DNA of 62,937 nucleotides, the filler included, from Vannella sp. (Eukaryota), in NCBI GenBank assembly GCA_023345925.1. It is 6 parts of 6 records of this genome, joined end to end, with 100 filler letters (N's around TTAATTAATTAA, not from the genome) between each part and the next. Parts side by side here need not be neighbours in the genome. Positions count along the whole stretch, not along the records: positions 18,992 to 28,680 come from JAJQQN010000523.1; positions 28,781 to 40,605 come from JAJQQN010000432.1; 4 more parts are not named here. One strand, 5' to 3'. The translations under genes and the position numbers were made by a program. Under the pieces are notes generated by a model. That model did not search any database, was not told where the DNA came from, and was given only the letters and a program-made list of their open reading frames with translations. Shown here piece after piece: positions 13,925-41,422 of the stretch (positions are counted from its first letter, which is position 1; every line of letters begins with the position of its first letter).

Positions 13925-15262
13925 TCACACTCGGAAGATTGGGAGGCGATTGCCAATGTCGGTTTGGCAGGTGGGGCACAGGAATTGGGTTTCGAGACAC
14001 TTGGTGCAGTAGCCGAGATGCCCACAGGGTATTAAGACACAATCTGCCATTCTCTCATAGCAGATCTTGCAGCTGTTCATCTCTAGTAACTCCTCCAGGC
14101 TCCACGCGGCCAACCTGGCAGCTTCTATCTCTAATTCACTCATGTGGGAGTCTTGGGGTGTTTCCAGGGACACCCGGAGATTGTCAAGAGAAGAGGCGGC
14201 CTTAACAAAGGCAAGCCTCTCAGGCTTATCCTGAAAGGGAGTGGGAGTCCGACAAGACTGTCCCATACTTCCCTCAAGCTGCGTTGACTTCTTGTAGCGG
14301 GTTTCCAGTGCATCCCGCATAACCTCGTCCGGAATGAGCTGCTCTATTTTCAAACGATCGCTTTCTGAGGGTGGCCGAAGACCTTTGTCCCGAAGGCGAG
14401 CGAGATACCTGGCAATGGGAGCGAGAAGTACTCCTTCTCGCTCACTTTCGTTCATATCTATGAGCCTACGAGCTTCTTCAACTTGTTTGTCCTCATACTG
14501 TTCGTCATAGTGGGCCTCTAAGAGTTTTCGGATCTCCTTATCTCCTGAAGAGTGCCACCAACAACGCTTCAAGAGCGGATCATCGCGAGCGCCTTGGTGA
14601 AGCAAGTCAGCTACCATATCCTTTTGGCCTGAAGAGCACGCATAGAAGAGAGGAGAGTTGCGGAAGCTGTCAAGAGAATTGATGTCCACACCGTCCTCCA
14701 AACACTTTCCCAGTGCTTCGATGTCCCCCTTCTGAGCACAATCCCAGATGTCCTTGCACATGAGAGTTGATCCAGCCCCTTGAGTGCGAGGACTGCGCGG
14801 TGAAGAAGTAGGACTAGACAAGGGAATGTGAGCACTGCACAAAACATTCCCTTCGGTGGGGCAATGCTTATCACACATTGCATTAGAGCACGTAGCAGAT
14901 GTCTGTGAACCGCAGGTAATGCATGGTGGAGACCATGGAAGAGAGAGTGAGGCACTTTTTGTCTCGAAAGTGAGAGGTTCAGACATCCACTCCTCAGCAG
15001 AGGGCACGAATGGGGTGATTTCGTTTGCAAGAACCTCTTGTTTCGGAAGATCTGCAAGGCTGAATGTAGTTGACCTCTTTGCAGAACTTAATCGCGGTGC
15101 TGCACTCAAAAAGGAAGATTCCCCCGCATGAACGGAGCATCGGATCTGTCCCGTTAAGCCACAGTCCGTCTTACACATCCGATTCGGACACTCAGCATCT
15201 CTTGCAAGCGGACAAAACGGGGTCTCGCACTGTTGAACCCTCAACTTCTTCCTCTTCGGCAT
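13925..15262 (-). CDS. Ankyrin + C3HC4 RING E3 ligase with two N-terminal Cys/His zinc-finger repeats
   Basis: ANK: CAQKGDIEAL...GVDINSLDSFRNSPLFYAC; RING: CKICYERMADCVLIPCGHLGYCTKC...CPTCQ. Intronless. Confidence 0.88.
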   Translation of the reverse strand: MPKRKKLRVQQCETPFCPLARDAECPNRMCKTDCGLTGQIRCSVHAGESSFLSAAPRLSSAKRSTTFSLADLPKQEVLANEITPFVPSAEEWMSEPLTFETKSASLSLPWSPPCITCGSQTSATCSNAMCDKHCPTEGNVLCSAHIPLSSPTSSPRSPRTQGAGSTLMCKDIWDCAQKGDIEALGKCLEDGVDINSLDSFRNSPLFYACSSGQKDMVADLLHQGARDDPLLKRCWWHSSGDKEIRKLLEAHYDEQYEDKQVEEARRLIDMNESEREGVLLAPIARYLARLRDKGLRPPSESDRLKIEQLIPDEVMRDALETRYKKSTQLEGSMGQSCRTPTPFQDKPERLAFVKAASSLDNLRVSLETPQDSHMSELEIEAARLAAWSLEELLEMNSCKICYERMADCVLIPCGHLGYCTKCLETQFLCPTCQTDIGNRLPIFRV

Positions 15263-22733: not shown

Positions 22734-23325
22734 GTGAGGAAAAAAATGACTCAAAGCGAGACAGGCGGATTTTTGGCCCTCGTTCTTTGAAGGATCGGTG
22801 AAACTTTGTGTTCGAGCAGATCAGTTATTGGGGTAATGGCGGCGCCAATGTTTGAGAAGACGTTGCTTCTATTATTGGGGCCCGCTTGGTGGCAGGCGTT
22901 CTTTGTGCATTCAAACAAAAACTGGTCTAAAAACAGAACCTGAAACAGCTCACTTGGGCGTTGACTTTTGTTGGCATGTTCGCTTGAGTCAGTGAAGGCC
23001 GACTGTGTGGCGTCTCAGTAAAGTCTATGAAAGATGCACTCTTGATCACTTGTTAGACCAGGAGCTGATTTGACCTGAAGGACTAGCCAAGGTTCCCTTG
23101 TCCAAGCGGAATCCCACGTCACGAGTCAAAAAAGAGCCAAGTTGGAACCGCCCACCTTTTTGAGAGAGTCCACGGCCCCAGTAAACCACCGAATCCCTCC
23201 CTGTTGATCTCGGGCCACCTTTTTGGAATACGCTTTAAATCTCAATTCTTCAAACGGAATTGAATAATTGTGTAAATTAACTCAGGTGGGCAGTCGCTGG
23301 TCAGTCGCTTTGTGTTGTGGTGGGG

Positions 23326-26300
23326 ATGGACGAGGACGAGTTGCACGAAATCTGCAACAACGGGGATGTTGACGGACTTCGCAAGTTCATTCGAGACGCT
23401 CCTACTGGATATGATTTCAATCAATATGAGGTGAGAGCCTTCACCCCCAAAGGTGACCTGATCCTGACCTCTCTCAGAACGTAAGTGCGAACTTTACCAC
23501 TCCCAGACTCTTCTAAGATATAGCTTGCACCATAGTGGGTAAGTGGAGTGTTACACGTCTTCTGGCTCTCCTGCTGACCAAGTCGTCATCGCGTCCACCA
23601 TTCTAGAAAGTAAGTGAAGCTCAGAGGCGATCATTGGCAAAGTTAAGAAGCTCACGTATCACTCCTTTTAGTGGGTGAGTCTCCTTACAGCGTCGAACAA
23701 GCGCGCAGAGATTGACCGGCGATCCTCCTTCTTTTTAGAGAGTAGGTGATGGCCCCGCCTTCTGGCTTTGATTGACATACTAACTATACTATTCTCCTTC
23801 AACAGTACGTAAGTGGCTAACTGACACTGTCACTTCACCGTGGACTGAACGAGGTTCCCCCTCAGACTCCGCTTGGTATTGCTTGCAAGAAGGGGCACTT
23901 GGAGGTGGCGAAGATCTTAGCTGCGCATTCTGGCGTGAACCTTGAGCAGGTGAGTGCTCACCAGAGCGGTGTCCCGCGCACAACATCGACGAACAATCGG
24001 GACTGACCCAACTTGGGGCAGGGCGTAAGTCTTCAGCTCTTTGGGAACTCGCTGTACTAGACTCTCATCAGTAACTAACCTTTGGGTGACTCCCGTTGTG
24101 GATTAGTGGGTAAGAGGACCATCCTTTGCACTGGAGTGTGGGCGCGATAGACGAGGGCGAGCTAACAGGTCTTCTAGGTGGTAGGTTTACACTAATTGGG
24201 AAGGGATAAAGCACCAAGCTCATGGAACCGAACTCTAGGGCGTACGTGCTTTCTTCCTTCCCTTCCTGAACTCACAACCGGGAAGGAATGGGTAAGGTGT
24301 TGAGACGAGGGCGTGCCACGCGCTAACTCTGCCTTTGCTTTCTTATAGGGAGTAGGTGGCCTCTTCCAAGAGTGAGGGATTGATACTAACCTACTTTGGG
24401 AGCTTAGCTGGTGAGAGTAAGTTGTTGGATGTTCCTGCGTTTGTACCTGCGTTTCTCTCTCCTCACAACAAGCGATAGACGCCATTAGAAGTGGCTTGTT
24501 CGTCAGGCGAGGACGAGATTGTCAAGTTTCTGGTTGAGAAGCAAGTGGATGTCACCCCAAAGGTAGTTCTAACGCATAAGAGCTCCCTCCAGTGCTGATG
24601 CCTTGCTGCAGGCTTTCTTAAACTACGCTAAGCAGACCATTCGAGACAAGAAGATGAGCAAAATAGCCAACTCCAACCCCACAGAGGAGCGTGACTCACC
24701 GACAAAGCGCGCTGATGAGGCACGCCGGCAGGAGGACGAGCAGGAGAGGGAGAGGCTGTCACGAGAGAACAAGAACCTCACCAGGGATGTGAGCCGCCTC
24801 AAGAACGAGGTGTCTTTCCTCAAGGACGAAGCACAACGCCAGGAGGAGCGACTGAAGAGTGCTCGCAGCCGCTCCGACAGAGACCGGGAGGCGCTCATAG
24901 AGGAAGTCAAGACCCGAAACATTGACATCGTGCCCAGCCCCAGAGGCCGCTCATCCTCTGTGGTGGAGATCAGAGAGGTGATCAAAGAGGTGCCGGTGAT
25001 CACAGAAGTCATCAAGGAGGTGATTCGCGAGATCCATGTCCCAGGCGGGGTTGCTGGTCCCACGTATGAGTCCGAAGGGTGGTGGGGCGAGGCCAATGCA
25101 GTTCTGGAAGACACGATTGCCCTCAATCAGAAGCGAATTGGCCTTGTGGATCGAGTAGAAGTTGTTGCGGATCACCTGCGCAAGTACCGCAAGGCGGGCG
25201 GATCCACTCCCAAGAACCGCCGAGCGGCTGGACCCGTCAACCTTCGTGACGATCACAACACAATCTCTAAAAGCCACGCCAGCTGGAAGAAAATCCTGAC
25301 CGACGGCCTCGAGAGCTTCTTCGCGGGTGATTTCGGCAAGGACAACTCCATTGACGTCACCAAGATCAACCTTGTCATCAAAGCTGCTCGTAAGGAACAA
25401 GAGAAGTGCCAAGAACACATCAGAGGCTTCTACGCCAAGCTAGAGGACCTCGATAACGATAATGAGAGCGCTGACATGTCCCAAATCCGCCAGCGCAAGA
25501 AAGTTATTGAAGATCTGAAGACTACCATCCAAGGCATTGCCGACCAGTACAAATTCCAGCTCCCTGATATTGAGAAAGAGATCGCAAGTTCCGATTGCAT
25601 TCCAAGTGACCTGGAAGATATGCTGAATCTCTGGAGTTCCTGGTACAGTCGCTATCAGAACTCTACCACTTCTGCTGCTTTGAACGAGCTCTCCCGCTCT
25701 CTTGCTACAACTCTTGTCTCTGCCAAGGAGGTGCTGCAGTTCCTCAAACGAGAGGAATCCATCTTTAACTTGCCTACGATTGGAGCTGCGCCACTTCCCG
25801 TGGTGAATATCCAGCAGTACCCAGCCATTCCCACCCAATTCGTTGAGTTCCTCATTTGCTGCTTCCGTTGGGCAGCTTCAGTCAGAGCTTTCTACAAGAA
25901 GCAGATTAAGTCAGATACTGAGACTTACCGCCAGCAGCAAGCTCGCGACGAAGTCCGTGCTCGTGTCCACACCATAGAAACTCAGATTGGGCAACATCTG
26001 GTTGAGGAACAGCAGATCGATAACATGGTCAATGAATTCCAGAAGATCAAGATCTCCTTGAAGAAGATGATGAGCTCCATCGCCCGCGATGATAGTAAGC
26101 TTTTGGACTATGAGATCACCATGGAAGAAGCAGACTTCAACGATGACGCTGAGATGACTAAGGAGGACATTGAAGAGCAGATGAAGAACACTTGCCAACG
26201 CATTGGACAGACAAAGGAACACCTTTGCACCATTCAGGAGCAGAAGCGATTGATTCTTCGCAACTTGCGGAACTTTGCCCTCCGAGGCCACTTGCTGGTT

Positions 26301-28370
26301 CTTGCTAACACGGAGATTTTCGACTCTCAGGGATTCCGAAATGAGCTCCTTCGGGGAGGTATGGAAGACCTGTACTTGGTCGGAGAGAACATCACAGATT
26401 ATGAGCAAATTGAATCGTTTGCCAAGTGTGTGGCCAAGTACCGGCACAAACAAGACGCCGGAAAGATCTGCGTCATGAAGCGCTACGAGATTATGGACGA
26501 GCAACAAGTCAAGTTCTTCCGCAACGAGCTCAAACTCCTCCGCAAGATGCAGCACCCTTTCGTTGGGAGCGTCGTCGGTGTTCTCTTCACCAAGAGTGAA
26601 GCTTACATCCAACTGCCTTATTATTCTGGCGGCAGCCTCCGCGATCGATGTGTTACCATTCAGCAGAAGCGCACACAATCTGACTACGCCAACAAGCACG
26701 AGCAGCGAGATTTTCACGAGATGAAGCGAATCTTCCACGAGGTGCTCCAAGCGTTGGCTTACTTGCACTCGCAATCTATCACTCACTATGATGTCAAGCC
26801 CGAGAATATCGTATTCGACGAGTACGAGCATCCCATTCTCATTGATTTTGGCATCAGCGAGGATCCCAACAGCACTCTCTTCACTCAGAATCCTGAGAAT
26901 GCCAGCTCACAAATTCGTGGGAGTGTGGGGTACATTGCACCAGAGATCAAGTCTGGCCAACCCTCCATTCTCACTTCAGATTGCTGGTCCTTTGGCGTGA
27001 TGCTCTTTGAGTCATTCTACGACCTGCCTAACTTTGACCTGGAAAGCTTGGGACTGGTGGAGATTCCAGCACACTCTGACGAGGATCTGCGGGCTCTGTT
27101 GAAGGGACTACTCAACACGGACCCCTCTCGGCGATTCACAGCATCTCAAGCCCTTAAAAGCGCATTCTTCTCTCAGAAGTCGTACGAGAAAGCCTTTGAC
27201 AGGGAGAGTACAGTTCAATCTGCCAAGAAGCTGGAGGCTTTCCGCCACTTCCTGGAGATCATTCGCAACAACGATCGTCTTTTCATCATCAACATTCACC
27301 GCGAAGTGTTGGTGAAAGACATCTTCACCGAGTTCCGCAGCAAGACAGCGAACCCTGAAGCTATGCGATTCCAAACCGTCGTCCAGTACATTGGCGAGAG
27401 TGGCATCGACACGGGGGGTCTCCGCCGCGACCTTTACTGCTCCTTCTTTAAGGAGATCTGCGATAGCAAGTATGGCATGTTTGAACTCAGCAGCGAGGGC
27501 AAGTTCTATTACCCCATTCCAGACAAGGACCGCAAGCAGAGCTTAGAAGAGCAGTATCTTCTCTTTGGCAAGATCCTGGCCAAGACTATGATTGACGGGG
27601 ACGTCATTGGAGACTATTTCCCCATCACTCTGTTCAAGTTCCTTGCGGACCAGCAGGATACCATCGACCTTTCTGATGTCTATCTGTACGATAAGCAGCT
27701 TTATGGGAACTTACAGTCATTGCTTATGCAGTCCATTGATGGGTGGGAGCTTGATTGGGACATTGACGAGAATCCCAACAACTACGAACTCATTGATGAC
27801 CGCAACAAGGACGTTTACATCCTCCTGAAGAGTCGCTCAGTGCTGATTGACCAAAGGAAAGAGGCGCTCAATGCGATTAAGAAGGGCTTCCAATCCGTGC
27901 CTGAATTACTGTCTCACTTGGCCCTCTTATCGCCAGTGGAACTGCGCCTCCTCCTCAGCGGAGAGACGTACATTGACGGTGACATGGTTCTGCATCAGAT
28001 TGAGTTTGAGGAGCGGTGGGAGAAGCCAGATGCTCAGGCTACACGAAAGAACTTCTCCAAATGGATCCGGACAGAAGCCAGCTCGGACCAGCTGAAGATG
28101 GTCCTCATGCTGACAACTGCCTCGCCCACCATCCCCGTTGGTGGCTTCAGCCCTCCCATCAAGGTCCGCTATGTTGATGGTAAGCAACTCCCTCTGCGTT
28201 CTCACTCCCTTCTGACATGAACCAACTCAGATTCGACTCGGTTGCCCGAAGGGCAGACTTGCGTCAACATGCTCATGCTTCCTAACTACAAGGATGATTA
28301 CGCTCTATTAACCAAGCGCTTTTCAACCGCTTTGGAGAACATTGGATCGAGCGGGTTCCAACTCAACTAA
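23326..28370 (+). CDS. Ankyrin-repeat (microexon-encoded loops) - coiled-coil - protein kinase - HECT E3 ligase fusion
   Basis: Exon 23326-23430 (MDEDELHEICNNGDVDGLRKFI...FNQYE); 6 microexons; exon 23866-23949 (TPLGIACKKGHLEVAKILAAHSGVNLEQ); 7 microexons; exon 24479-24562 (TPLEVACSSGEDEIVKFLVEKQVDVTPK); exon 24612-28179 with kinase (VMK, HYDVKPEN, DFG, GYIAPE) and HECT (GESGIDTGGLRRD); last exon 28231-28370 with the catalytic Cys motif LPEGQTCVNMLMLPNY and TAA. Confidence 0.9.
23478..23808 (+). other. Microexon array A1: six 3-nt exons AAC, TGG, AAA, TGG, AGA, TAC (N W K W R Y)
   Basis: Positions 23478, 23536, 23607, 23672, 23739, 23806; each is yAG|NNN|GTRRGT, separated by 47-68-nt introns with branch-point-like motifs. 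Confidence 0.85.
24022..24410 (+). other. Microexon array A2: GGC, TGG, GTG, GGC, GAATGG (6 nt), GGA, CTG (G W V G EW G L)
   Basis: Positions 24022, 24107, 24178, 24239, 24286-24291, 24349, 24408; each flanked by an AG acceptor and a GTAAG/GTAGG/GTACG/GTGAG donor. Confidence 0.82.
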
Positions 28371-28510
28371 CCAGTTGGTTTCCAAACCATAAATGGGTCA
28401 TCCATTCTGCCTTGGTCCATTAACCTCTCCAGGATGGCGCCAATGGAAAGAGGGCTGCAGAAGGGGTATTCTGAAGTTCTCTGACCTTCCAGGCCATGCT
28501 TGTTTGTCCT

Positions 28511-28645
28511 AGGACAAGCTCCACCTTGGGATGGGAGATGGATGTGGACTTTCAACCTTCCAGAGAGAATCCACGAGCGAAGGGGAAGAGGGCAGAACTC
28601 GTGTTTGCGTAGCTTGTCCTGATGACCTCCATCTCCTTTTTCTTT
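28511..28645. repeat. Dispersed structured repeat / candidate ncRNA, copy 1
   Basis: Core CGTAGCTTGTCCTGATGACCTCCATCTCC shared with 29054-29081 and 40403-40430; inverted repeat GGAGATGGA (28534) / TCCATCTCC (28628) followed by TTTTCTTTT. Confidence 0.6.
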
Positions 28646-28680
28646 TCGCCTTCCGCGGGTCGCACCTCTCTCCGTGCGAT

Positions 28681-28780
28681 NNNNNNNNNNNNNNNNNNNN
28701 NNNNNNNNNNNNNNNNNNNNNNNNTTAATTAATTAANNNNNNNNNNNNNNNNNNNNNNNNNNNNNNNNNNNNNNNNNNNN
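28681..28780. other. Artificial contig linker
   Basis: N-TTAATTAATTAA-N, 100 nt. Confidence 0.97.
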
Positions 28781-28920
28781 ATCAGCTGGATGTGTATCTC
28801 TGCATCCGGTCTGATGTCACGAAAGGCCAAAAGGTCCTCATCTTCAAAGATCACATCCGCAGTCACCTCTTTCCTCGCAATACGACAAAAAATGCAATCC
28901 GCCTCTCCGACCTCTCCCAT
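28781..28920 (-). CDS. HIT-family (HINT-like) nucleotide-binding protein, 5' fragment
   Basis: DCIFCRIARKE...VIFEDEDLLAFRDIRPDAEIH is the HINT N-terminus; truncated by the linker. Confidence 0.85.
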
Positions 28921-28965
28921 CCCGCACCAACACGAAATGGCTCCCACACGAGAGCATTACTTCTA

Positions 28966-29103
28966 GGAGATGGAGCATGTTCCAGAGTCGTCCTGCTCTT
29001 CGCATGTTTGGAGAAAATCCACGAGTGAAGGGGCAGAACCCATGTTTGAATTTCGTAGCTTGCCCTGATGACCTCCATCTCTTCAGGATAAGCTTTTGGA
29101 CTT
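28966..29103. repeat. Dispersed structured repeat / candidate ncRNA, copy 2
   Basis: GGAGATGGAG...AATCCACGAGTGAAGGGGCAGAAC...CGTAGCTTGCCCTGATGACCTCCATCTCTTCAGGATAAGCTTTTGGACT. Confidence 0.62.
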
Positions 29104-29257
29104 ATTTCATTTTTTCGCTTTTTGGATGTTTGAGGACCCAAACAAGGGGAAATGCCCTCGCCGCTCGTTTGCTGTTTCCCTAGAACTGACAATTTTAAAA
29201 ATCTTTGAGCAAATAAAATGATTAGAAGGAAAAGGCTTCATTTTGGTTCCTCTTTCG

Positions 29258-30016
29258 ATGAGCGACCTCAAGGCCCAGTGGGGAGAGATCGTTTCCAAGC
29301 CAGTGGATGAACAAGTGAAACTCTTTCTGAGAGCCTTTGTGTTGGAGTTCCAGGGCAAGTTCGAAGAGGTGTTGAACATCGCCGACAACTTTAAGAACTT
29401 CCGAGAAGGCGTGGAGGAGTCTGAGCGCAAGAACATTCGAGAGTTAGGAGAGTTTGAGTGCCATTGCTTCTTGGAGAAGAGAGGAGAGACCTTGACCGTC
29501 CGTGACCTTCGAGAGAACCTGAAAGCTGAAATCCGCTTGGACCCTCACCACAACGTTGCCATCCTCGAGTACTTGCTTTGGAAGTACCAGAAGAGCTTGC
29601 AGCAGCTATTTACTCCCCCTCCTGAAGGTTCTGTCCCTGCGCACCTTCTTGCAGCTTTGGATGAAGCTATCGAGGCCCACAACGCTGCTCTGGAGGCCGA
29701 GAGACAGCGCCAACTCAAGATCAAGAGTCTAGCAGAGGCTGAAGCTAGCTCTCGCAATGAACTAGAGCGCCACACCGCAAACAAGGAGAAGTCCAACCTC
29801 GAAGGTCAAGAGTTTGGAGCTGCCTTTGCCCAAATGCAAGCCCGCAAGAAGAAGAGAGAGGCAGAGGAAGCACTGAAGAACGCAGAGAAAGTGGATCCCT
29901 TCCAAGAGGAACAAAAGCGCCTGGCAGAGGAGAAAGCAAAGCGCGAGGAAGAGGAGAAACGTCAAAAGGACGAGAGCCGCTCCCGCCTAGCTGCCAAGGC
30001 CTCTCTGTGGAAGTAA
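29258..30016 (+). CDS. Calcium-regulated actin-bundling protein (ABP34)-like protein with coiled-coil tail
   Basis: KPVDEQVKLFLRAF and TLTVRDLRENLKAEIRLDPHHNVAILEYLLWKY resemble the Dictyostelium 34-kDa bundling protein family (from recall, not searched). Confidence 0.7.
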   Translation: MSDLKAQWGEIVSKPVDEQVKLFLRAFVLEFQGKFEEVLNIADNFKNFREGVEESERKNIRELGEFECHCFLEKRGETLTVRDLRENLKAEIRLDPHHNVAILEYLLWKYQKSLQQLFTPPPEGSVPAHLLAALDEAIEAHNAALEAERQRQLKIKSLAEAEASSRNELERHTANKEKSNLEGQEFGAAFAQMQARKKKREAEEALKNAEKVDPFQEEQKRLAEEKAKREEEEKRQKDESRSRLAAKASLWK

Positions 30017-30218
30017 TCTTCCTCGACCTTGATAAACGGACTGCCTTGTGCTCCTCTAGAACGAATAACAATCTCTCTCCATGACGAAGTCCAGACTTCG
30101 TGGACTTTAATGCGCTTTGTTGTAGAATGACCGCATTTTGAACGAAAAATGAATTCTGGAGAGTCCTGGAAGAAGATCATTCTTAGTCATATTATTGGCC
30201 ATTTCCTTTTCCTTGCTG

Positions 30219-32494
30219 ATGGCACACACGGGTGGCCTCCGAGACGCCATTTACTCTGGCAATTTGAGCCAGTTGAAGGCGTGTTTGGACGCCAATCCTG
30301 AGGCTCTTAACCAAGTGGGTCCTCCTTCACTTTGAGAAAGCTATCTTTTGAGAAGGAGAGGCTTGATGAAGGAGAAGACTCACCAAAAGGGGATCATTTA
30401 AGATTGTTAGTGACACATTACCTCGCTAAGGAGAAGCAGGCGAATACAGTACACTAAAACGGTCTCTTTTAGTGGGTAAGTGATTGATCCATAACCTTTC
30501 ATGAGGAAAAGGAGATTTCCAGAAGATCCTGATCAGAGAAGAGAGGTTCTCACCGAAAGTCTCATGTAGGAGGTCAGTAACTCATTGAAGGAATCTTCTT
30601 GAGAAGGAGATGAGAGAAGAACTCACTAAAAAGGCTCATTCAGCAAGTAAGGACTGATCTGCTGCTCCCTTTTATGATAAGATCAGCTCATTCAAATGAA
30701 CTTTAGGATGTGAGTACCTATGTACTTCTGATGAGGAGATGGACCCACTTGATCAGAAAAACTCACCAAAAGTCCCCTTAGCGAGTAAGGATAGTTAGTC
30801 AGATAGAGAGGAGGGCCATTCATCATGATGGGCCTTTCAGGGCGTAGGTTACCATTTCAAAAGAGAAGAATTCAGCAAACGGATCTCTTTTAGTGGGTAA
30901 GTGACTGATTGATCCATCACCTGCCTTTGGAAAACCAGAGATTCAACAAGAGAAAATACCATAAGGCTCACTTAGAGTCTCGTTTAGTATGTAAGTGACA
31001 AACTGTCATCTGGTTTGATGAAGAAAGCCTTCTCTAAAATGTTGTGTTTAGGAAGTAAGTGATTCTAAGAGAGAAGAAGAACTCACCAAAAGCGCCCCTT
31101 TCAGAAAGTAAGTGACTGATATCCTAAGTTGATGAGCTTGAGAGAGGGGAATTCACCAAAATGGTCTGTTTTTAGAGCGTAAGCGACTGGTTCATTACTT
31201 TCAAACCGGCCATATGAAGGACATGTACTCATCAGGGCTTTGCTTAGTGGGTAAGTGATTCAATCCATCACTTTTGAGAAAAGACTCTCAGAAGGAAAGG
31301 AAATTGCGAGACACTGATCAATCGAGTCCAATTTAGGCAGTAAGTTATCAGGCTGTAAGCTGATTAGAAAACTGTTCCCCAAGACAAGGAGTAGTGCTCA
31401 TTAAATGATGAATCTCTTTTAGTGGGTAAGGAACTGAATGATCATCTCTATTTGGAGAAAGGAACTAATTATCACTTTAGGTAAGTTGCTGGGATTGCTA
31501 CCTACTCCCCCTGCCAATGATTCATAGGATACCTTTGAAAATTGCTCACAAGCTTGAAGACCATTCTAGGATGGGCTTCGTTTCAAGGATGGGACAAAAT
31601 AGTAGAGTTCTTGGTTACTCGACGTGGCATCGACCTTCAAAAAGGAGTATGTTCAAGGTTTGTGAGAGATTCTTCTCACATGATTTTTCAGAATGTAAGT
31701 TCTTTCTATCAGTGTCTAGAACTTGAGGTGGCTAGGTGAGTCAGCTTTACCAAGATATAACCTTGATTGAATGATAATCTTATTGACCCTGAGATTCAAG
31801 AGTTCGTGTTCACATACCGTGCTCCTGAAAATTCTCGAGAGACTCTGAGATAAGGAAGAAGAACTCACCAAAAGACTTTAGACGGTGAGTGATCGATTCA
31901 TCTCTGCTTTTGAGGAGAGGAGCTGCACTATCAGCAGGGAAAATAGCTCACAGAGAAGAATTATTTAGAGAGTGCGTGATTTTTTCCACCTTATGAGGAA
32001 AAGTACTTCTTGAATGGAACTTGGTCAGAGGTTTATGAGGAGAAACTGACCAAGTTCTGAACTTTAGGGAGTGAGTGACTCAAAAATCACGGTAGAATGG
32101 AGGTGAGCATTACTGAAGATGTTTTAGGATGTAAGTGCCTCATGCATACTCCTTGATGTTGAGCGGATGCGAAGAAAAGACTCAAACTGACTAAGGAATG
32201 TAATTTAGACAGTGAGTAACTGATCACTCTTTGGTGAAAACCCTCTCACGTGGGGCATGCTCAGTTGGTAGGTAGTAGACTATCACTACAAGAAAAACTA
32301 ACCGAAACCGGATTCAGTCCTCGCTGGATCTAGCTCTGCGTCGAGGACCCACACACAATGCAGTTATTGAAATTCTCATCTCTGCAGGGGCAAAGTGCAA
32401 AGATGTGCGAAATCTGAGTGTCTACCAAGGAGTACTTACTTCAGCAGGAGCAAACTTTGATGGAAAAATATCTGGGGGAGAAGAACCAGGCTGA
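30219..32494 (+). CDS. Small stand-alone three-ankyrin-repeat protein with microexon-encoded loops (not in ORF track)
   Basis: Exon 30219-30314 (MAHTGGLRDAIYSGNLSQLKACLDANPEALNQ); 15 microexons; exon 31560-31646 (TILGWASFQGWDKIVEFLVTRRGIDLQKG); 7 microexons; exon 32318-32494 (SSLDLALRRGPTHNAVIEILISAGAK...EPG*). All junctions are phase 0. Confidence 0.85.
30403..31425 (+). other. Microexon array B1: fifteen 3-nt exons ATT TGG GAG CAA GAT CGA GGC TGG TAT GAA AAA AGC TGG GCA TGG (I W E Q D R G W Y E K S W A W)
   Basis: Starts at 30403, 30473, 30570, 30644, 30707, 30782, 30841, 30894, 30988, 31052, 31105, 31176, 31248, 31337, 31423; each AG|NNN|GT, usually with an upstream CTCAC/CTCAT-like branch motif. 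Confidence 0.87.
31692..32267 (+). other. Microexon array B2: AAT, ACG, AGA, GGA, GAT, ACA, TTG (N T R G D T L)
   Basis: Starts at 31692, 31882, 31969, 32068, 32128, 32209, 32265; each yAG|NNN|GT. Additional ambiguous sites at ~31735 and ~31801. Confidence 0.82.
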
Positions 32495-32790
32495 CTCAGT
32501 TGCCTTGAAGCAGAAGAGAACTCAACAGCACTGCATAATGTCTTGATTCTCATCAAGGATGACATAAAGTGTCGATACTCAGAACTCATTTTCTGGATCT
32601 TCATGCAACATTCAGGATTCAGAGCTCCCGTTAGCTCAGTAGGATGTCCTGAGATGAGAGAGTCCAACAAGGCCCAGACTGATTGCCAGGAAATAATTGC
32701 TTCATAATGACTTTATCAATGAAATCCGCTGGCTGATAAGGATTGTAAAATAGGAGGTTAAATAAATCATTATATTTGATCTTTGGGTTG

Positions 32791-33768
32791 ATGACAACTG
32801 TGGCGGAGAAGGTGCAGTGGTTGGAGGGTGTTAAGGAGGAGCTGAAGACAGTTCTGGGTGATCTCCGTTTGGAATGTGCGATTGAAGAAGCTGTTCATAG
32901 GAACTTGAAGGAGGAGCAGCGAGAGATGAGGGAGCAGCACGAAGAGCTGTTCTGGCGGAGGATAGAAACGGAGCAAGAGATCAGACGAGTTCTCGCTAAC
33001 TCAGCAGCGAATGAGAAGCACACAAAGGAAGCAGAAGAGGCAAGGATTACTACGGAAAGGCTTACTTCTCTTCTGCAGAAGACAGAGGGGAGGTTGGCCT
33101 CTGCTGCTCGAGAACGAGAGACATTGCAGCAGAAGACTTGCTCCTTGCGCGAAACGGTTACTCAGGCCCACAGATCCTTCAAACAGTCATCTGTTGAAGC
33201 TTCTGGTTTATCAGAATGTCAGAGGATCGGCTTGAGCGCTCTCCATCGCAAGATCCAGTCTCGAACCGATATCCAATCGCTCTTACTCTCCCTTGCCAGA
33301 GATCTAGAGACACTGAGACACAACATTGAGATAGAAAGCAAACAAAGGGAGACTCTGACCACTCAATTACACTACCAAGCGAACATAATTCGTTGTGGAC
33401 TGGAAGTGGCATTGAATGATCGAGAAACCATCGTGGAAGACCTTCATAACGGGCTCAAACAACGAGCCATTACAAGAGATAACCTTCAGCTACTTTCAGC
33501 TCAGACGCAGATCGCACTTCGGAACAACGACAGCTCAAAGATATCTTTATCAGTTCACGACTGCCTGCAGCTTCAAGAGATTGTATCTAGTCTCGATCTA
33601 CAAATTGAAGACATCTACCATTACGATGAAGAAGGTTCCCGGCCAGAAGATACGGATCTCCTTCCCGTTGGTGAAATCAACACCCTTCACGATGGAATGG
33701 TCCTTTTAGAGTCCCACCAAGCTGCTTTGGAAAGCAGAATCAGCTTAGCTTCGAAAGGTCCAGTTTGA
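32791..33768 (+). CDS. Coiled-coil protein of unknown function
   Basis: Long intronless ORF with heptad/EQR-rich composition. Confidence 0.65.
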   Translation: MTTVAEKVQWLEGVKEELKTVLGDLRLECAIEEAVHRNLKEEQREMREQHEELFWRRIETEQEIRRVLANSAANEKHTKEAEEARITTERLTSLLQKTEGRLASAARERETLQQKTCSLRETVTQAHRSFKQSSVEASGLSECQRIGLSALHRKIQSRTDIQSLLLSLARDLETLRHNIEIESKQRETLTTQLHYQANIIRCGLEVALNDRETIVEDLHNGLKQRAITRDNLQLLSAQTQIALRNNDSSKISLSVHDCLQLQEIVSSLDLQIEDIYHYDEEGSRPEDTDLLPVGEINTLHDGMVLLESHQAALESRISLASKGPV

Positions 33769-34076
33769 TTGATGGTGAGGAAAGTCTCCAAAACCAACAT
33801 TGACGGCCAAGTAACTTAACAGAAACCTGTCGCCACTCTTTGTTAGCTCAGAAAAGAGAAAGGATGGCAAGCTTTCTTCAGCTTTCACAAGGAATGATGT
33901 GAAATACAATATTTATCAAGAACATAATATCGCCAAGTTGTCCCCTTCCCAAAAGTGGGAAAAGTCTGATTGGGGTCAATCCTCGAATTTCGAAGCCTCT
34001 CTCCTTCCTCGTGGATTTTTAACCACCATTTGGAAGCATTTGACCGGCTGCTCCTCCGGTAAATGAAAACATCGGG

Positions 34077-34097
34077 AACCTAAACCCTAAAACCTAA
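34077..34097. promoter_or_regulatory. Telo-box-like motif upstream of the RRM gene
   Basis: AACCTAAACCCTAAAACCTAA about 35 nt before ATG 34131. Confidence 0.45.
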
Positions 34098-34130
34098 GCG
34101 GGAAAGACCATCTTCTCCTGGCCTGGCTTG

Positions 34131-36913
34131 ATGGACGAGGAGGGCTTTCAAGTGGTCGTTCAACGCGGGAAGGCAAAAGTGAGCACAGAGAATCAAGTGA
34201 GAGGCGCAAGGAGACAAGACAAGGCTCCTTTGGTACGTTTGGAAGGGAATGGCAGGAGAAACAAGGTGAAAGTTGCTGTTTCTCGAAGAGAAGAGGCGGA
34301 TGTTGCTGTTACTCGAGGTGTCTCGCCTCCCCCACAGTCGCCATTGGATGAGAAGACTCTGAAAGTGAGCAATCTCCCATTGGGACCGATAGAGGAAGCT
34401 TTGCGCCTTCAGATGGAGAGCGCTGGACCGATTCCTGTCGCCCTCCGCTTCGTCGAGTACAAAGGCGACCGCTTAGCGTTTGTGAATTACGAGACCCATG
34501 AGCAGGGTACGTTTGAAAGCCATTGATATAGCGTACGCTGACTTGTGAGCAGCTTCTCAGGCTCTTCAAACCTTGTTGTCGAGTCTGACTCTCGATGGGA
34601 CACTTCTTCGCATCGAGCGGGCTTGGAAATCCCCTCAAAAAGAAGCCAAAGTTGCTAGGAAGCCTGCATCTCATCGCAAGGAAGAGGAGGACAAGGGCCA
34701 GCCCACTCAGAGGAGGCGAAAGCGTCCGATTGTGAAGCAGGAAGCTGCTGAAGGCCCCAGCATGACAACTTTAGCACGAAAGGATGACGAAGTTCAAGTT
34801 CAGAGTAGTTCTCTTCGCCAGAGGGCCAAAGCAGGGCCACAACGGCCTCGTGGGGAGAGAAACTTGACACAATCAGCTGACTTGATCTCGACCGGACCAC
34901 TCAATGGCACAGCAAAAGACGCAGACAAGTCCTCTCGATCCACTGAAGCTCAAAAGGGGAGAGTGGCACTTGAAGCTTCGGAAGAGGGCACATTAAGTAA
35001 GAAGGAGCAACAAAGACTCGAAGCAAAGCAAAAGAAGATGCTTGATGCTCTGGCTGCCGCTCCAGTTCCACTGTTTGAGATCAAAGTAGATTCAGGAGCG
35101 GTCACAATCCCCAGTGCCACTGCCAATGCTCCGATTATCTCCCAAACCGGTGCCAAACGAGCCACCGTTACAGCCAATCAACGGAAGAGACAAAAGAAGA
35201 AGTCTGAGGCGGCTCAGCGTCTCGCAGAGCAGCGAGCCGCTGCTATCAAAGTGCAAAAAAAGAAGGAACGCCAGGAGAAGCTCAAGCAGGACCTAGAAGA
35301 TGCTGAGCGCTGTCTCAGAGCAGAAAAGGAGAGAGAAGCCGCAGAGCTTGCAAGAATTGAGGCTGAGCGACTTGCGTTGGAGAGGAAGATGCGCCTTATT
35401 GATGAACAGATGGCCGTTATCTTTGAGCTTCAGCAGAAGGTGGAAGAAGTTGATTCGCCCAAGGTTGAAGAAACCAAAGCTACAATCGTCAACAAGAGAG
35501 AAAAGAGTCCAAATGTCTTCCTGTTTGGAGAGGGAAAGAAAAAACCCATCCGAAAATCTAAAGCCAAGCCAATTGTGACCACATCAACGCGTCAGGCAGC
35601 GTCTGTTGGATTCGCAATCGTGCACATGCCTTTACATGAACAGGAAAAACTTTTCTCTGCTCGCTTTGAACCAATCATCTTGCCTACTCCCGTCCGCAGC
35701 CTTTCCAAACCAAAGAAGTCTTCTCGTCCTGCCCAAGCAACTTTCAGTTCTACCACTGATAGCGAGAAGGTGAGAGCTTCGAAGCTTGTCACTGCGGAGA
35801 ATCGTGATTTAGTGGAGCTTGATCAAGGAGACCGCTCGACCAAAGAGCCAGAGCAAATGAGTGCAAAGGAAACAGAAGTTACGAATCAAGAAGAACAAAA
35901 GCAAGAAGTCTTTAATCTTCTTCCAACGGTTCACGATGATAAGGAACCAATTGCTCTACAAGAACTCTCAGTAGAGGCGAAATCTGAGGCAAAAGAGAGC
36001 TCAGAAGAGCTGATAACGCAGGAGGAGCACAAGGAGCAGGCAATTTCTGAAAAGGCAGCCGAGGAAGTCCCAATTTTGATCCCAGCTGAAGCATCTTGCA
36101 GTGACTTGGGAAGGACTGTTGAAAAGGGATTTGCAGAAGAGCAACCAAGCGATCAAGCTTCACAAACTATCGAACAGTCTCAACCTAATCCAATCTCCAG
36201 TGAAATAGTCACTGTAGTGGTTCCTGTTGAACCAACCAAGGAAGTAACTCGCAAACATCAGCGACCTATTTTAACTCTCTCTCACGACGACTCCTATGTA
36301 CGGAATCCCATATAAGATACTCCGCTACTCACTCCCAATGTAGCGCATTTTCCCATCAGGAATGAAGACCACAACTTCCCGGCGATTGCCAACCCGCAAA
36401 ATCAATCTCCAACCGATTCCAGCGCAGCATTACGAAAGAATGAAGAGAATCACAGAGGAAGCAGCAGCTGAACAAGAAGAGGAGGAAAGAAAGAAGCGAG
36501 CTTTACGAGGAGTTCAGATGGGAGGTGGACCAAACCTCTTTGGAGGGTTCGATCCATCAAAAATCAAGCTGGGATCAAGATCTGTGCGCGGACCCAGTTC
36601 AGTGAATGCGGGAGCTGAAGAACTGAGATCTAGTCTCCGTGATAGAAGTGCAAGTATCAGCGAAAGTGCACCAAGTGGATTGCCAGAGATTGGAGGTCTT
36701 GCAGCTGTATTGAAAAGCCGCCGAGAGGCCTCTCAAAAGAAAATGGAAGATTCACCAGCCAATGTCACTCCCATCCCTCAGTCTATCTTTCCCGTGAAAC
36801 TCAAGCCCCGAAATGCGACTGTTTCTCGTCCAGTGGTATCAACCCCACTGGTCACAAACGAATTATTCGCAAAGCTGCAGAAGCGCAAAGAAGCATCAGA
36901 AGGATCATCATAG
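34131..36913 (+). CDS. RRM-containing, coiled-coil, low-complexity protein with C-terminal actin-regulator-like motifs; at least 2 introns
   Basis: RRM (TLKVSNLP...LAFVNYETHEQ...LDGTLLRIERA); coiled coil; tail motifs GVQMGGGPNLFGGFDPSKIKL and NELFAKLQKRK; introns at ~34507-34552 and ~36298-36343. Confidence 0.65.
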
Positions 36914-36959
36914 ATGATGGCGGTTATTCCATCTTCAAACTGATAAATTGATGAGGGAT

Positions 36960-39179
36960 CAGATTAGATTAGTGGCATCCTGCGAACACTTCGTTGAGAA
37001 AGGCTTGCACGTAAGTGGCTGAGACAGTGCCAGTCCACCCCTTATCATCAACCCCAAACAAGTAATGCAATCCGTCAGCGGTCGCATCAGGCCTTCCTAG
37101 TGTGATGTGCTGAGAGTGGAGGTGTCGAACTCCAGGAAATTCATTTCTGCCTGAGGATCAAATTCTGTTCTGCTCCCCATTTGCTGAGCACTTACTTTGC
37201 AATTTGGTTGAAAGAAACACTTCGGAATTGAGTCAAGTATTCTGTTCCTGCATGGGCGTTACCAGGAAAGTAAGGATTTCCGTACCAATACAGCTTTGGA
37301 GCTCCTTTCTGGCCCTGTTGCATAACTACATCAGAAGTAAGCTCTTGAAGATCTTGCATCCATTTTTTGAAGACTCGAGACTTTTGATTGAATAGTGCGT
37401 GTGCATTGGCTGCGTTGAATAAGAGGACGTTCGGCCTGTGTTCCTGAAAAAGCACTTCACAGACCATCAACGGCTCTTCTATTATCTTGGATGTGTTCGC
37501 TGCTCTGATATTGAACTGATCTAACATTGTACGAATGTATTCCTTACTCCTCTCCTTTGTAATCGGATCCACTAAGTGCTCTCCATTGCTGATATCGTGC
37601 CAGGCCTCATAAGACACCCTCAAGTCGGTTCCGTCGATGAGCTGATCGGCAAACATAAATTTGCCCGTATCAACAATAGAATTGAATGATTGGATGTAGG
37701 CTGCGAACTCACGAATGAGCGAGTCTGAAGCAAATAAATCTCAAGTCAAAGTTCTTGAATGATGTGCACGCACCTCCTAGCATATGTATCCATCGGATTC
37801 CTTTCTTTTTCGCACACTTTCCGATATCCTTGAGGGAATAGTAGTGATAGTGGCACCGGTAGGGCACCCAAATCCAAGGGTTTTCTGAGAATTCCCTTCG
37901 TAGCAGTGAGTATCGGAATTTCCAGTAGGATCAAGCATACCATGAAGAATTGGTGATGCGTGCTGCTGTCCGGTCTCCAGTGCAAAATGGGGGATAGCAA
38001 GATTCTCCAGCTGCCAGGACTTTGAGCCATCGGCCCTCTTCGAGCATCGAAGTGCATTGGATCTGGTCTTGGACGTTTGGAATCATTAAATCACTTTCCT
38101 TCGCACCCCGCTTTTTGACATTCAAAACCAATGATCGGGAACCACTTATTTCGCTCCGATCTTGATCACAAGGAAAGTTTCTGTGGGCAATGTGAGAGCC
38201 AACAAGAATCGGGATGGGATCTTCAAGAGGCTCTGAGTCAGCATAGAACCAATTCAATATCACAACCAAATTAAAACTGCCAGTATCCTTTCCCTCAAAG
38301 GAAACAGCGTAGCCTTGATGGACCTTGTCATAGTGGAGGGAAACATCCGCATTTTGGATAATCGACTCACTCTCCAGGAAGGCGGCGAAGACAAGATGAC
38401 GGAGCAGATTTGGGTCAAAATTCGCCTTCACTTGCGGGTGGGGAACAATCCATAGTCTCTATTGACTTGTCAAAAGTGACTTCTCAAAGTGACGTACCAT
38501 TTTCTCTCCCCTCATCAGATTATGGCGGAGGCCTTTGAATAGGTAGTCTCCTTTGTCATCTTTGAGGAGGAAGTGGTATGCCAGAGGAAGAGGCTGATGA
38601 AGATGAGCTTTTTCAAGTTAGAACCGATTCTCTTCACTTCCAGAGACCCAAGTCCTCGTACCTTGACACCAAGTACAATGTGGTTGAGATGAAGTGATTC
38701 CTTCAACTTCCAGGAGCTTCTCTTTCACTTCTCCTGCCAAGTTGGCGAACGAAGAAGTAGAAAAGGGGCGCAGAGTACAGCTGGCAGTCCCATCGTCAGG
38801 GAAGAAGACGACCTCGAAGTGGCGAGTCTTCTCATAGGTAGGTATAGCAGGCAGGATCCTTCTGAAGCTCTCCGTAGACTCTGGAATGTTGCAAATCAGC
38901 TCCACGCCAAGTACGCTCATCAGGGCGACCCGTTCTTCGTAGGTCATCTCTCGATCAGCACTGAATGAGGTCACAGAGGAAGTACAGATCTGCAGCTGCT
39001 CAGGCAGAGACACATTCAACGTGATCAACCCACCCAGACCAGAACTCCCCTTCCTTCCTCCCTGAAGGAGTGAGAGAGACAGATAAGAACCATCTGATAG
39101 AAAGTAAACACAAAAAAGCATCCAAAGCACGCTGACCAGCGCCAAAGCAGGCACAAAACGGCGAGAGAAGCGGAGCATG
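36960..39179 (-). CDS. Type II membrane protein, multi-exon, possibly a Golgi glycan-modifying enzyme
   Basis: Signal anchor RFSRRFVPALALVSVLWMLFCVYFLS followed by co-oriented ORFs (38618-39229, 37931-38431, 37192-37656); function and exact ends not established. Confidence 0.45.
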
Positions 39180-39726
39180 AAGTGAGGCGAGCGAATCCAA
39201 TCAGCAGAATGGCACTTTATAGTCCCCACTTGTCATGTACACTCTTACTTGGCCAGCTTGCTTGATAAGAGCTTCATTTACGCTCTTCAGACTCTCTGTT
39301 GAGAGGCGCTGACTTCCCTTTGCAGGAGGACCTACTGAGTTCCTTATCATATGGATGATAATCGCACTCGCTTCTCCTCCGCCAAGAGCCAAAGGGAGAT
39401 CGCAGCAAGGTCTAGTACCATAAACTCCAGTTGAAACTCCCAGCCTTCATGTTTCGTGACAGGAAGGCTGGGGCATTGACCGAATGGGGTTGACAGGTGA
39501 CTTGGCGACAGTCAATCCTTTGGCCACCGACCTCATTCAAGAACCATTTTACAACTTCTAATCACTCACGTAGAAGTTGGCTCATTTCGAGAGGTAGTCA
39601 GTCGAAAAGGGGCGATTCGCTAAGATTGGCCAATTCAAGGAAAAAGAAAAGAAAGGTGAAAGGGAGGACTAAAGAGAGGCTTTGAGGAGACAGCACTCTT
39701 CAAACAAACTCCTTCTGCCTTCTTCT

Positions 39727-40308
39727 ATGCAATCAATCAAGTGTGTCGCTGTTGGGGACGGTGCTGTCGGAAAGACGTGCCTTCTGACCACTTACACAAC
39801 CAACTCCTTCCCCAGTGACTACGCTCCGACGATCTTCATCAACTACGCGCGCGAAGTCATGGTGGATAACAAGGCTGTTCACTTGGGCTTGTGGGACACC
39901 GCAGGACAAGAAGACTACGATCGCATTCGCCCCCTTTCCTATCCCCAGACCGATGTGTTCCTCGCATGCTTCTCCGTGATCTCCCCAACCTCCAGAGATA
40001 ACATCAAGTCCAAGTGGGCTCCAGAGATTCGCCACCACTGCCCCTCTGCCTCCGTGATCCTCGTGGGAACCAAGATCGACTTGCGAGATGACCCCGCCAT
40101 CACCTCCCGTTTGGCCGAGCGTGACCTTCCCATCACTTTTACTGAGGGATTGGAGTGCTCCAAGCAGATCCATGCGAACAAGTACATCGAATGCTCTGCC
40201 TTGACACAACAGGGAATGAAGAATGTGTTTGACGAAGCCATCCGCTCGGTCACTGCTCCTCCATCCTCTAAGCCCTCCAAAAAGAAGGCTCCTTGCTCTC
40301 TCTTATAA
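39727..40308 (+). CDS. Rac/Rho-family small GTPase
   Basis: [44 protein letters not shown], polybasic region + CSLL CAAX box. Intronless. Confidence 0.96.
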
Positions 40309-40395
40309 ACATGCAAGCGTTCATACAACAAACGTAGCTCGTACAGAGAGTGGAAGCCAACACCTGCGCGACTGGCAAAAGTGACTTCGAATACC

Positions 40396-40450
40396 GTATT
40401 TGCGTGCTTGCCCTGATGACCTCCATCTCCTCAGGATAAGCTTTTGGACT
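40396..40450. repeat. Dispersed structured repeat / candidate ncRNA, copy 3
   Basis: GTATTTGCGTGCTTGCCCTGATGACCTCCATCTCCTCAGGATAAGCTTTTGGACT, near-identical to 29058-29102. Confidence 0.62.
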
Positions 40451-40605
40451 GATTTTAGTCGGGGTACTTGTTGGGCTCATTGACCATCCCCCCAAACGAG
40501 GGAAAAGTAACCCTCTTAAAAACATATAAAAACATCATTTGGATCGGTGCCAGTCAGGGGTGGTCATAGCTAGGTGATAAGAAGCCGTAAGATAGCAATC
40601 TTATG

Positions 40606-40705
40606 NNNNNNNNNNNNNNNNNNNNNNNNNNNNNNNNNNNNNNNNNNNNTTAATTAATTAANNNNNNNNNNNNNNNNNNNNNNNNNNNNNNNNNNNNNNN
40701 NNNNN
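40606..40705. other. Artificial contig linker
   Basis: N-TTAATTAATTAA-N, 100 nt. Confidence 0.97.
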
Positions 40706-40729
40706 CCTTTTTTTCTCCTCCGAACGACG

Positions 40730-41422
40730 ATGGTCCAGCGTATCACCTACCGCCGAAGACACTGCTACAACACCAAGTCTAACAAGATCAAGGTTGTTAA
40801 GACCCCTGGTGGCAAGTTGGCCGTTCAATACCGAACCAAGAGCGCCAAGGGCCCTAGCTGCGGTGACTGCGGCATCTCCCTTCCCGGTGTAGGTTATTCA
40901 AGCATGATTTCGCGAGGATACTTATTTGGAAGGATAGATCGCCCACCTCCGACCTAAGGAGTACAGCCGTATCCCCAAATCCCAGAAGACTGTTGCCCGT
41001 GCTTATGGTGGCAGCGTCTGTGGAGGCTGCGTCAGACAGCGGTAGGTTCATCTCCATCTCTCTTTGTGAAATGATGAAACTCTATCTTGGATTCCCCTTC
41101 GTAACTATCCTTGACGAATATCCTCATTCTGATCACAAACCTTTTGCTGTATCTTTCTGACCCAACGTACAGAATCCTCCGCGCCTTCCTGGTTGAGGAA
41201 CAGAAGGAAGCCAAGAGCAGTGCTTACGCTGCCGCCCGCGCTGAGGCAAAGGATAAGGCTGGACAAGCTAAGCCTGAGGCAGCCAAGGCTGCTCCCGCCA
41301 AGGCTGCCACAAAGGCTGCCCCCGCAAAGGCTGCTGCCCCAGCTAAGGCCGCCGCTCCCGCAAAGGCTGCTGCCCCAGCCAAGGCCGCCGCTCCCGCCAA
41401 GAAGACTGCCGCCAAGAAGTAG
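40730..41422 (+). CDS. RPL34: 60S ribosomal protein eL34 with Ala/Lys/Pro-repeat C-terminal extension; 2 introns
   Basis: MVQRITYRRRHCYNTKSNKIKVVKTPGGKL...CGDC; second exon KTVARAYGGSVCGGCV; third exon RILRAFLVEEQK followed by (AAAPAK)n. Confidence 0.95.

Follow-up and report, generated by a model that had tools for sequence, protein, structure and literature searches.

A window of 62,937 nt from the Vannella sp. assembly GCA_023345925.1 (the whole stretch of DNA analysed here, six contigs joined by an artificial linker) contains two genes in which ankyrin repeats are separated by arrays of units only one codon long. Each unit lies between an acceptor and a donor splice site, and at both loci the arrays run in phase 0 up to the TPL-like motif that opens the next repeat. 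This observation, put forward in an earlier sequence-only reading, is confirmed. Consensus splice sites stand at every unit, the phase is 0, the length is strictly 3 nt, and stops are absent. We give a probability of roughly 0.55 to the reading that the 32 strong units are spliceosomal exons and would provide a library of loop residues picked by exon skipping, above all at locus 2. The elements of locus 1 (23326-28370, an ANK3-coiled-coil-kinase-HECT gene) and of locus 2 (30219-32494, a small, weakly ankyrin-like gene) are as follows.

23326..23430, + strand, locus 1 exon 1: ATG and a first, cap-like ankyrin repeat, phase-0 donor GTGAGA (from the sequence and its translation)
23478..23808, + strand, array L1a: six 3-nt units (23478 N, 23536 W, 23607 K, 23672 W, 23739 R, 23806 Y), introns of 47-68 nt
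23866..23949, + strand, locus 1 ANK core exon 2: 28 aa, starts TPL (Pfam Ank, E=2e-4)
24022..24410, + strand, array L1b: six 3-nt units (24022 G, 24107 W, 24178 V, 24239 G, 24349 G, 24408 L)
24479..24562, + strand, locus 1 ANK core exon 3: 28 aa, starts TPL (Pfam Ank_3, E=6e-5)
24612..28179, + strand, locus 1 large exon, 3.6 kb: predicted coiled coil, protein kinase and HECT ubiquitin ligase
28231..28370, + strand, locus 1 last exon: likely HECT catalytic Cys motif and TAA (homolog support)
28681-28780, strand ".", artificial linker between contigs: N44-TTAATTAATTAA-N44
30219..30314, + strand, locus 2 exon 1: ATG and a cap-like repeat, donor GTGGGT (from the sequence)
30403..31425, + strand, array L2a: 13 strong units (30473 W, 30644 Q, 30707 D, 30782 R, 30841 G, 30894 W, 30988 Y, 31052 E, 31105 K, 31176 S, 31248 W, 31337 A, 31423 W) and two weak-site units (30403 I, 30570 E)
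31478..31486, + strand, zero-length unit, TAG followed directly by GTAAGT; a second one at 31733-31741
31560..31646, + strand, locus 2 core exon 2: 29 aa, starts TIL, acceptor AAG, donor GTATGT (Ank_3, E=0.087)
31692..32267, + strand, array L2b: seven units (31692 N, 31882 T, 31969 R, 32068 G, 32128 D, 32209 T, 32265 L)
32318..32494, + strand, locus 2 last exon: starts SSL, ends TGA (PDB matches)

The pattern YAG-NNN-GTRAG matched 34 times in the window, against 8.0±3.2 times in 100 shuffles (largest 21), and 26 of the 34 matches fell on the + strand between 23475 and 32216. Chains of three units occurred three times in the window and never across all shuffles. Curation gave 32 strong units, with six in L1a, six in L1b, 13 in L2a and seven in L2b. 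When the spacing in YAG-N(k)-GT[AG][ACG]G was varied, the four array spans held 33 cases of k=3, two of k=0, two of k=7 and one of k=9, and k=1, 2, 4, 5, 6 and 8 were never found there. Within the array spans the enrichment is limited to the 3-nt spacing, and departures from it mostly preserve the frame (0, 6 or 9 nt). The acceptor is YAG and the donor GT-R-N-G in all 32 strong units, the donor being GTAAGT in 14. The introns mostly measure 45-96 nt, and the longer ones (107, 134 and 187 nt) contain weak or zero-length units. The zero-length acceptor-donor junctions might have arisen when a unit's codon was lost, or might serve in recursive splicing. None of the 32 unit codons is a stop (P about 0.016 from the units' own base make-up). 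Seven of them encode Trp, compared with 11 of the 1190 residues of the locus 1 large exon. Aromatic residues are typical of binding surfaces. Some units showed alternative forms. L1b holds a possible 6-nt unit at 24286 with the acceptor AAG, and its last unit (24408-24416) has two in-frame donors, giving 3 or 9 nt. The L2a Ala units at 31337 and 31352 overlap (31337-31354, 12 nt apart), making their joint use impossible.

In each of the four arrays, the last acceptor is in phase 0 and the T or S of a TPL-like motif follows at once (23866, 24479, 31560 and 32318). The claim that the arrays share one structural position held at this downstream end in 4/4 cases; the upstream boundary shifts by 1-3 residues among arrays. 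Their placement relative to the ankyrin repeat is non-random, as had also been proposed, since all four sit in the hairpin between successive repeats. At locus 1 the three repeats are divided among core exons with 35, 28 and 28 codons, and one array lies between each pair. Exon 1 alone gave no Pfam match, and the TPL-helix-helix repeat of about 33-34 aa was matched by Pfam Ank on both of the other core exons. In core exon 2 this match covers positions 4-28 of 33, and the PDB search with this exon returned ankyrins as well as designed ankyrin repeat proteins (DARPins). The case for an ankyrin domain with 3-bp exons is strong for locus 1 and weak for locus 2. The locus 2 product, roughly 140 aa, follows the same three-exon, two-array plan. 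Its exon 1 alone gave no ANK match, a Pfam Ank search of the locus found nothing at E<=0.02 (best Ank_3, E=0.087), core exon 2 had no PDB match at E<=0.01, and nothing relevant came from the PDB search with the first two exons. The last exon matched six PDB chains, all of them ankyrins or DARPins (E 0.0095-0.69). Scored with a local ANK profile, the joined locus 2 model reached 18.9 bits, whereas the shuffles reached at most 6.6 (130 of 200 scored).

The same profile was used to score subsets of units in each loop. L1a reached its best mean score with four of its six units. L2b was best with seven or five of its seven, and the three best L2b subsets combined N, T, R and G with any one of D, T and L. 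L2a was best with three units and worst with all 13 (mean 10.6 vs 7.2 bits), and a register set by hand gave a loop size of six. L2a therefore offers 13-15 units against the about 3-6 that its loop needs. Overall, one array matches the size of its loop, two exceed it by about two units and the fourth by at least seven. Locus 2 allows 2^20 possible subsets, or 36,036 at the hand-register loop length.

Under the exon-skipping reading, each unit would add one residue to the ankyrin hairpin. The short introns would be removed singly by intron definition, and surplus units would be skipped in varying in-frame combinations. The intron-plus-codon cassette would multiply via tandem duplication and unequal exchange. 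A varied hairpin on a fixed scaffold could alter the binding of the protein; at locus 1, it may determine the choice of substrates brought to the kinase and the HECT ligase. A role in defence or non-self recognition is suggested by analogy with fungal NOD-like receptors (NLRs) only.

The sequences suggest that the two loci differ in history, a point absent from the earlier reading. The earlier statement that their introns are dissimilar was borne out, with 0/336 pairs between locus 1 and locus 2 at Z>4. Within locus 1 none of 91 pairs passed this value, and within locus 2 44 of 276 did, some across its two arrays (two weak-unit boundaries were off by 2 nt in this comparison). Aligned locus 2 units have a common branch, acceptor and donor context, while their codons differ, with a codon identity of 0.27 vs 0.41 at intron positions +7..+12. 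The codons of locus 2 are at random identity despite the related introns. The units look like mosaics of duplicated pieces, to which conserved intron motifs may contribute. The introns of this locus are up to 187 nt long and have a lower GC content. Locus 1 would thus be old and near loop-sized, and locus 2 duplicated and oversized. The locus 1 array looks like an old one of near-normal size that may be largely fixed.

One alternative, on the lines of the animal sowah genes, treats the units as constitutive exons. All units would be included, the loops would be normal (L1b) or extended (L2a), and variation would arise in the germline via duplication and loss of units. The Pfam register requires six residues in L1b, and six are present, with Gly at the usual position. 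In the local profile L1b scored best with all six units, with four close behind, and the complete L2b with seven units reached 21.5 bits. Full use of L1b and L2b fits constitutive splicing, and most units have strong sites. In the parts of the sources available, fly sowah has annotated 3-, 3-, 6- and 12-nt exons (PMC8042270), and engineered DARPins tolerate a long loop at the same turn, so that L2a would resemble a LoopDARPin (PMC6977956). However, constitutive use of L2a would create a W-rich insert of 13-15 residues, the overlapping units at 31337 and 31352 are mutually exclusive, and the zero-length and weak-site units, together with the double donor at 24408, imply choices. We regard constitutive inclusion of all units as possible but less likely than exon skipping. 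The fit of L1b and L2b nevertheless weighs against exon skipping, as do several other points. The inclusion and skipping of units are predicted from DNA and homologous proteins. The two k=7 candidates in the array spans are out of frame. Branch-like CTRAY or CTCAC motifs lie upstream of 20 of the 32 units and of 212 of 1533 background YAGs, a contrast that is partly regional because 25 of 57 non-unit YAGs inside the arrays also carry such motifs. No more than 12 units went into the local profile, and locus 2 matches ANK weakly. Upstream similarity between locus 2 units gave no prediction of downstream similarity (0.41 vs 0.41), and the flank-codon contrast may stem from conserved intron motifs and not only from recent duplication.

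Locus 2 might also be decaying or selfishly amplified, its cassettes spreading neutrally with the frame kept and its variable splicing amounting to functionless noise. The weak ANK signal, the AAG acceptor on exon 2 and the zero-length and weak units would agree with this, as would the long introns (reaching 187 nt) with their lower GC and the lack of any DNA match among 135 fetched loci. On the other hand, the three core exons are all open, with ATG and stop, none of the 32 codons is a stop (P about 0.016), and the joined model stands above its shuffles (18.9 bits vs at most 6.6, 130 of 200 scored), so we think decay or selfish spread quite unlikely. It is highly improbable that the units are no exons at all but chance or minisatellite matches in two long introns. 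Although tandem repeats gave matches to an unconstrained pattern in viral contigs (15 loci), Tandem Repeats Finder reported nothing within the arrays, and the locus 1 introns are mutually unrelated. The shuffle controls and the strict 3-nt spacing contradict chance, and the loop becomes too short for the repeat when all units are removed.

The two loci lie on either side of the linker at 28681-28780, as the earlier reading had noted, and its N44-TTAATTAATTAA-N44 structure was confirmed. That reading had also inferred a gene family, for which support is partial. The same three-repeat, two-array layout stood, and the unrelated introns did not speak for it. On common descent, a low-power comparison of 28-35-aa pieces gave scores of 17, 35 and 19 between the ANK cores of locus 1 and those of locus 2, no higher than against unrelated ankyrins (up to 58). 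As for the many further copies suggested, two loci in 62 kb yield a Poisson range of 0.24-7.2 for each window, with selection bias still to be allowed for. The arrays are not general to ANK genes here, since another ANK gene of the window, as stated earlier, lacks them. It has a single open frame of 458 codons.

13925..15262, - strand, comparison gene ANK-RING: uninterrupted frame, Ank and RING matches

In the large exon of locus 1, Pfam placed the kinase at about 26439-27170 (Pkinase, E=3e-38) and the HECT domain from about 27444 (E=3e-32). The last intron of the gene has 51 nt (28180-28230). The homologs P0004 and P0123 read through this junction exactly as the spliced model predicts, which fits a spliced transcript or intron loss. 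Ortholog-like relatives are a handful only. The five close homologs, all metagenome records, share 50-84% identity over lengths of 668-2127 aa, and several homologs start at the same exon junction as the large exon. The ANK part was found in none of these five, nor in cluster members. This would be expected if their 5' ends are also fragmented, and because all five lack the ANK part, gene callers seem to miss such exons entirely. When proteins were searched twice for a full-length or N-terminal version derived from a transcript, none with ANK came up; a near-identical fragment of 218 aa was recovered. A distant protein, P0017, has ANK, kinase and HECT matches in one frame, with ordinary loops. 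No relative of locus 1 was found in viral contigs. Distant kinase-HECT fusions were seen in green algae, a dinoflagellate and an Atlas cluster.

Iotti et al. (2012) reportedly described the nank NLR genes of Tuber melanosporum with 3-bp mini-exons. These NACHT-ANK genes contain dozens of alternatively spliced 3-bp exons, and the portions of the literature available cite codon-sized exon arrays as a truffle-specific means of varying NLR sensors (PMC4986451, PMC9815663, PMC13449251, PMC10197012). As in Tuber nank, so far as these portions go, the window genes carry frame-neutral arrays of codon-sized exons in ankyrin-repeat genes, proposed to vary a recognition domain. Pfam finds kinase and HECT, and no NACHT, at locus 1, and the locus 2 product is only about 140 aa. 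In the first gene the ANK module forms the N-terminal part of a kinase-HECT protein, and in the second it is on its own, whereas Tuber nank is NACHT-ankyrin. The window arrays have 6-15 units and are known from DNA; those of Tuber have dozens, with alternative splicing reported in the available text. The window genes work like Tuber nank but are not members of it, as NACHT is absent and the host is probably not fungal.

The β-turn of DARPins holds randomised positions. In DARPins and LoopDARPins too, the ANK scaffold is kept constant and the variation falls on or close to this turn, but in the part of the source available they are man-made DNA libraries in which helix positions are also randomised (PMC6977956); in the window core exons the helix positions are fixed. 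Fly sowah (FBgn0036302) shares 3-nt exons in an ankyrin-repeat gene. It has two of them, with 6- and 12-nt exons, and the available part of the source gives no sign of duplicated cassettes or surplus units (PMC8042270). Its domain architecture and host also differ. The brown-algal ROCO-LRR and NB-ARC-TPR genes, candidate immune receptors, show exon shuffling, and they too vary a repeat-protein binding surface by splicing or at the exon level, but according to the accessible text their exon is a whole repeat and not one residue of an inter-repeat loop (PMC13449251). In the literature covered, from which subscription journals were largely absent, there was no report of such arrays from amoebae or on a kinase-HECT protein.

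The host was placed by a neighbour of locus 2.

29258..30016, + strand, actin-bundling-protein-like gene

Among species-named matches it came closest to Balamuthia (57%), followed by Acanthamoeba (48%). A quick tree, made from 63 of the 68 candidate rows after filtering by length, put it in a clade with these two genera and away from Gonapodya, with SH-aLRT (Shimodaira-Hasegawa-like approximate likelihood ratio test) values of 95-97. Judged from this one gene, the host is probably an amoebozoan and not a fungus; comparing RPL15 with PDB gave no placement. Should the units be spliced variably, a second supergroup would possess the device of Tuber, here directed at the hairpin with which ankyrins bind and linked to ubiquitination. 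Locus 2 is compact (2.3 kb, 20 strong units), and the choice of its consecutive 3-nt exons is testable with one amplicon. A bolder picture, rather unlikely in our view, has an amoebozoan lineage holding genome-wide natural DARPin libraries of its own, with hairpins made from duplicating one-codon exons and shuffled by splicing, and with the locus 1 module wired to kinase-HECT tagging of variable targets. If true, the targets could include proteins of intracellular bacteria or giant viruses, and adaptive-like recognition based on splicing would then exist beyond fungi and animals, with up to about 10^6 subsets at locus 2 alone.

Similar arrays were found in other sequence collections. An unconstrained three-unit pattern, which matched 15 loci in viral contigs, mostly fixed-period tandem repeats, was replaced by an asymmetric one. 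The asymmetric pattern had no matches in viral contigs, 12 in prokaryotic genomes and at least 125 in metagenome contigs. The results that follow refer to the matches listed. Among 123 metagenome loci (L016-L138), 96 had at least five stop-free units; these 96 fall into 31 blastn clusters, with the same gene present more than once, and the longest chain had at least 74. Pfam searches of 137 open reading frames from 53 of the loci gave NACHT or NPHP3_N matches in L024, L071 and L081, and GTPase-like matches in L028, L052, L083, L086, L088 and L089; several arrays follow NACHT or small-GTPase-like exons. ANK, LRR, TPR and Kelch were found neither in these frames nor in the 65 of 75 candidate flanking exons that were scanned, by a test that detected only 2 of the 4 window core exons. 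The flanks of L094-L138 were too short for classing. When the window ANK exons (tblastn) and the whole window (blastn) were compared with the 135 loci obtained through the pattern, neither ANK nor DNA matches appeared. The wider search proposed in the earlier reading, for arrays in ANK, LRR, TPR or Kelch loops, pointed elsewhere: arrays were common in other eukaryotic contigs, and none lay beside a detectable exon of these kinds. The array device is general and not tied to ankyrins, and there is no third ANK locus among these matches. The metagenome matches point to a much wider spread of such arrays than the literature records.

Rfam gave no family within 23000-41000, and no match for a dispersed repeat near the contig ends (28605-28635, 29051-29107 and 40399-40455), whose copies have a CTGATGA core and are 81-96% alike. 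Because this repeat is common to both contigs, they probably come from one genome. Three of the 12 prokaryotic-genome matches (L145, L147 and L149, on contigs C171, C114 and C69 of G001) were eukaryote-like and belonged to one bin, labelled Mycoplasma, in which Ank_2 had no match. These contigs have 15-18% GC and carry chains of dozens of one-codon units between GTAAG..TTAG introns of about 30 nt, with 38 pattern matches on the G001 contigs and none in the reversed control. Their probable source is an AT-rich eukaryote that has tiny introns and whose DNA was mis-binned.

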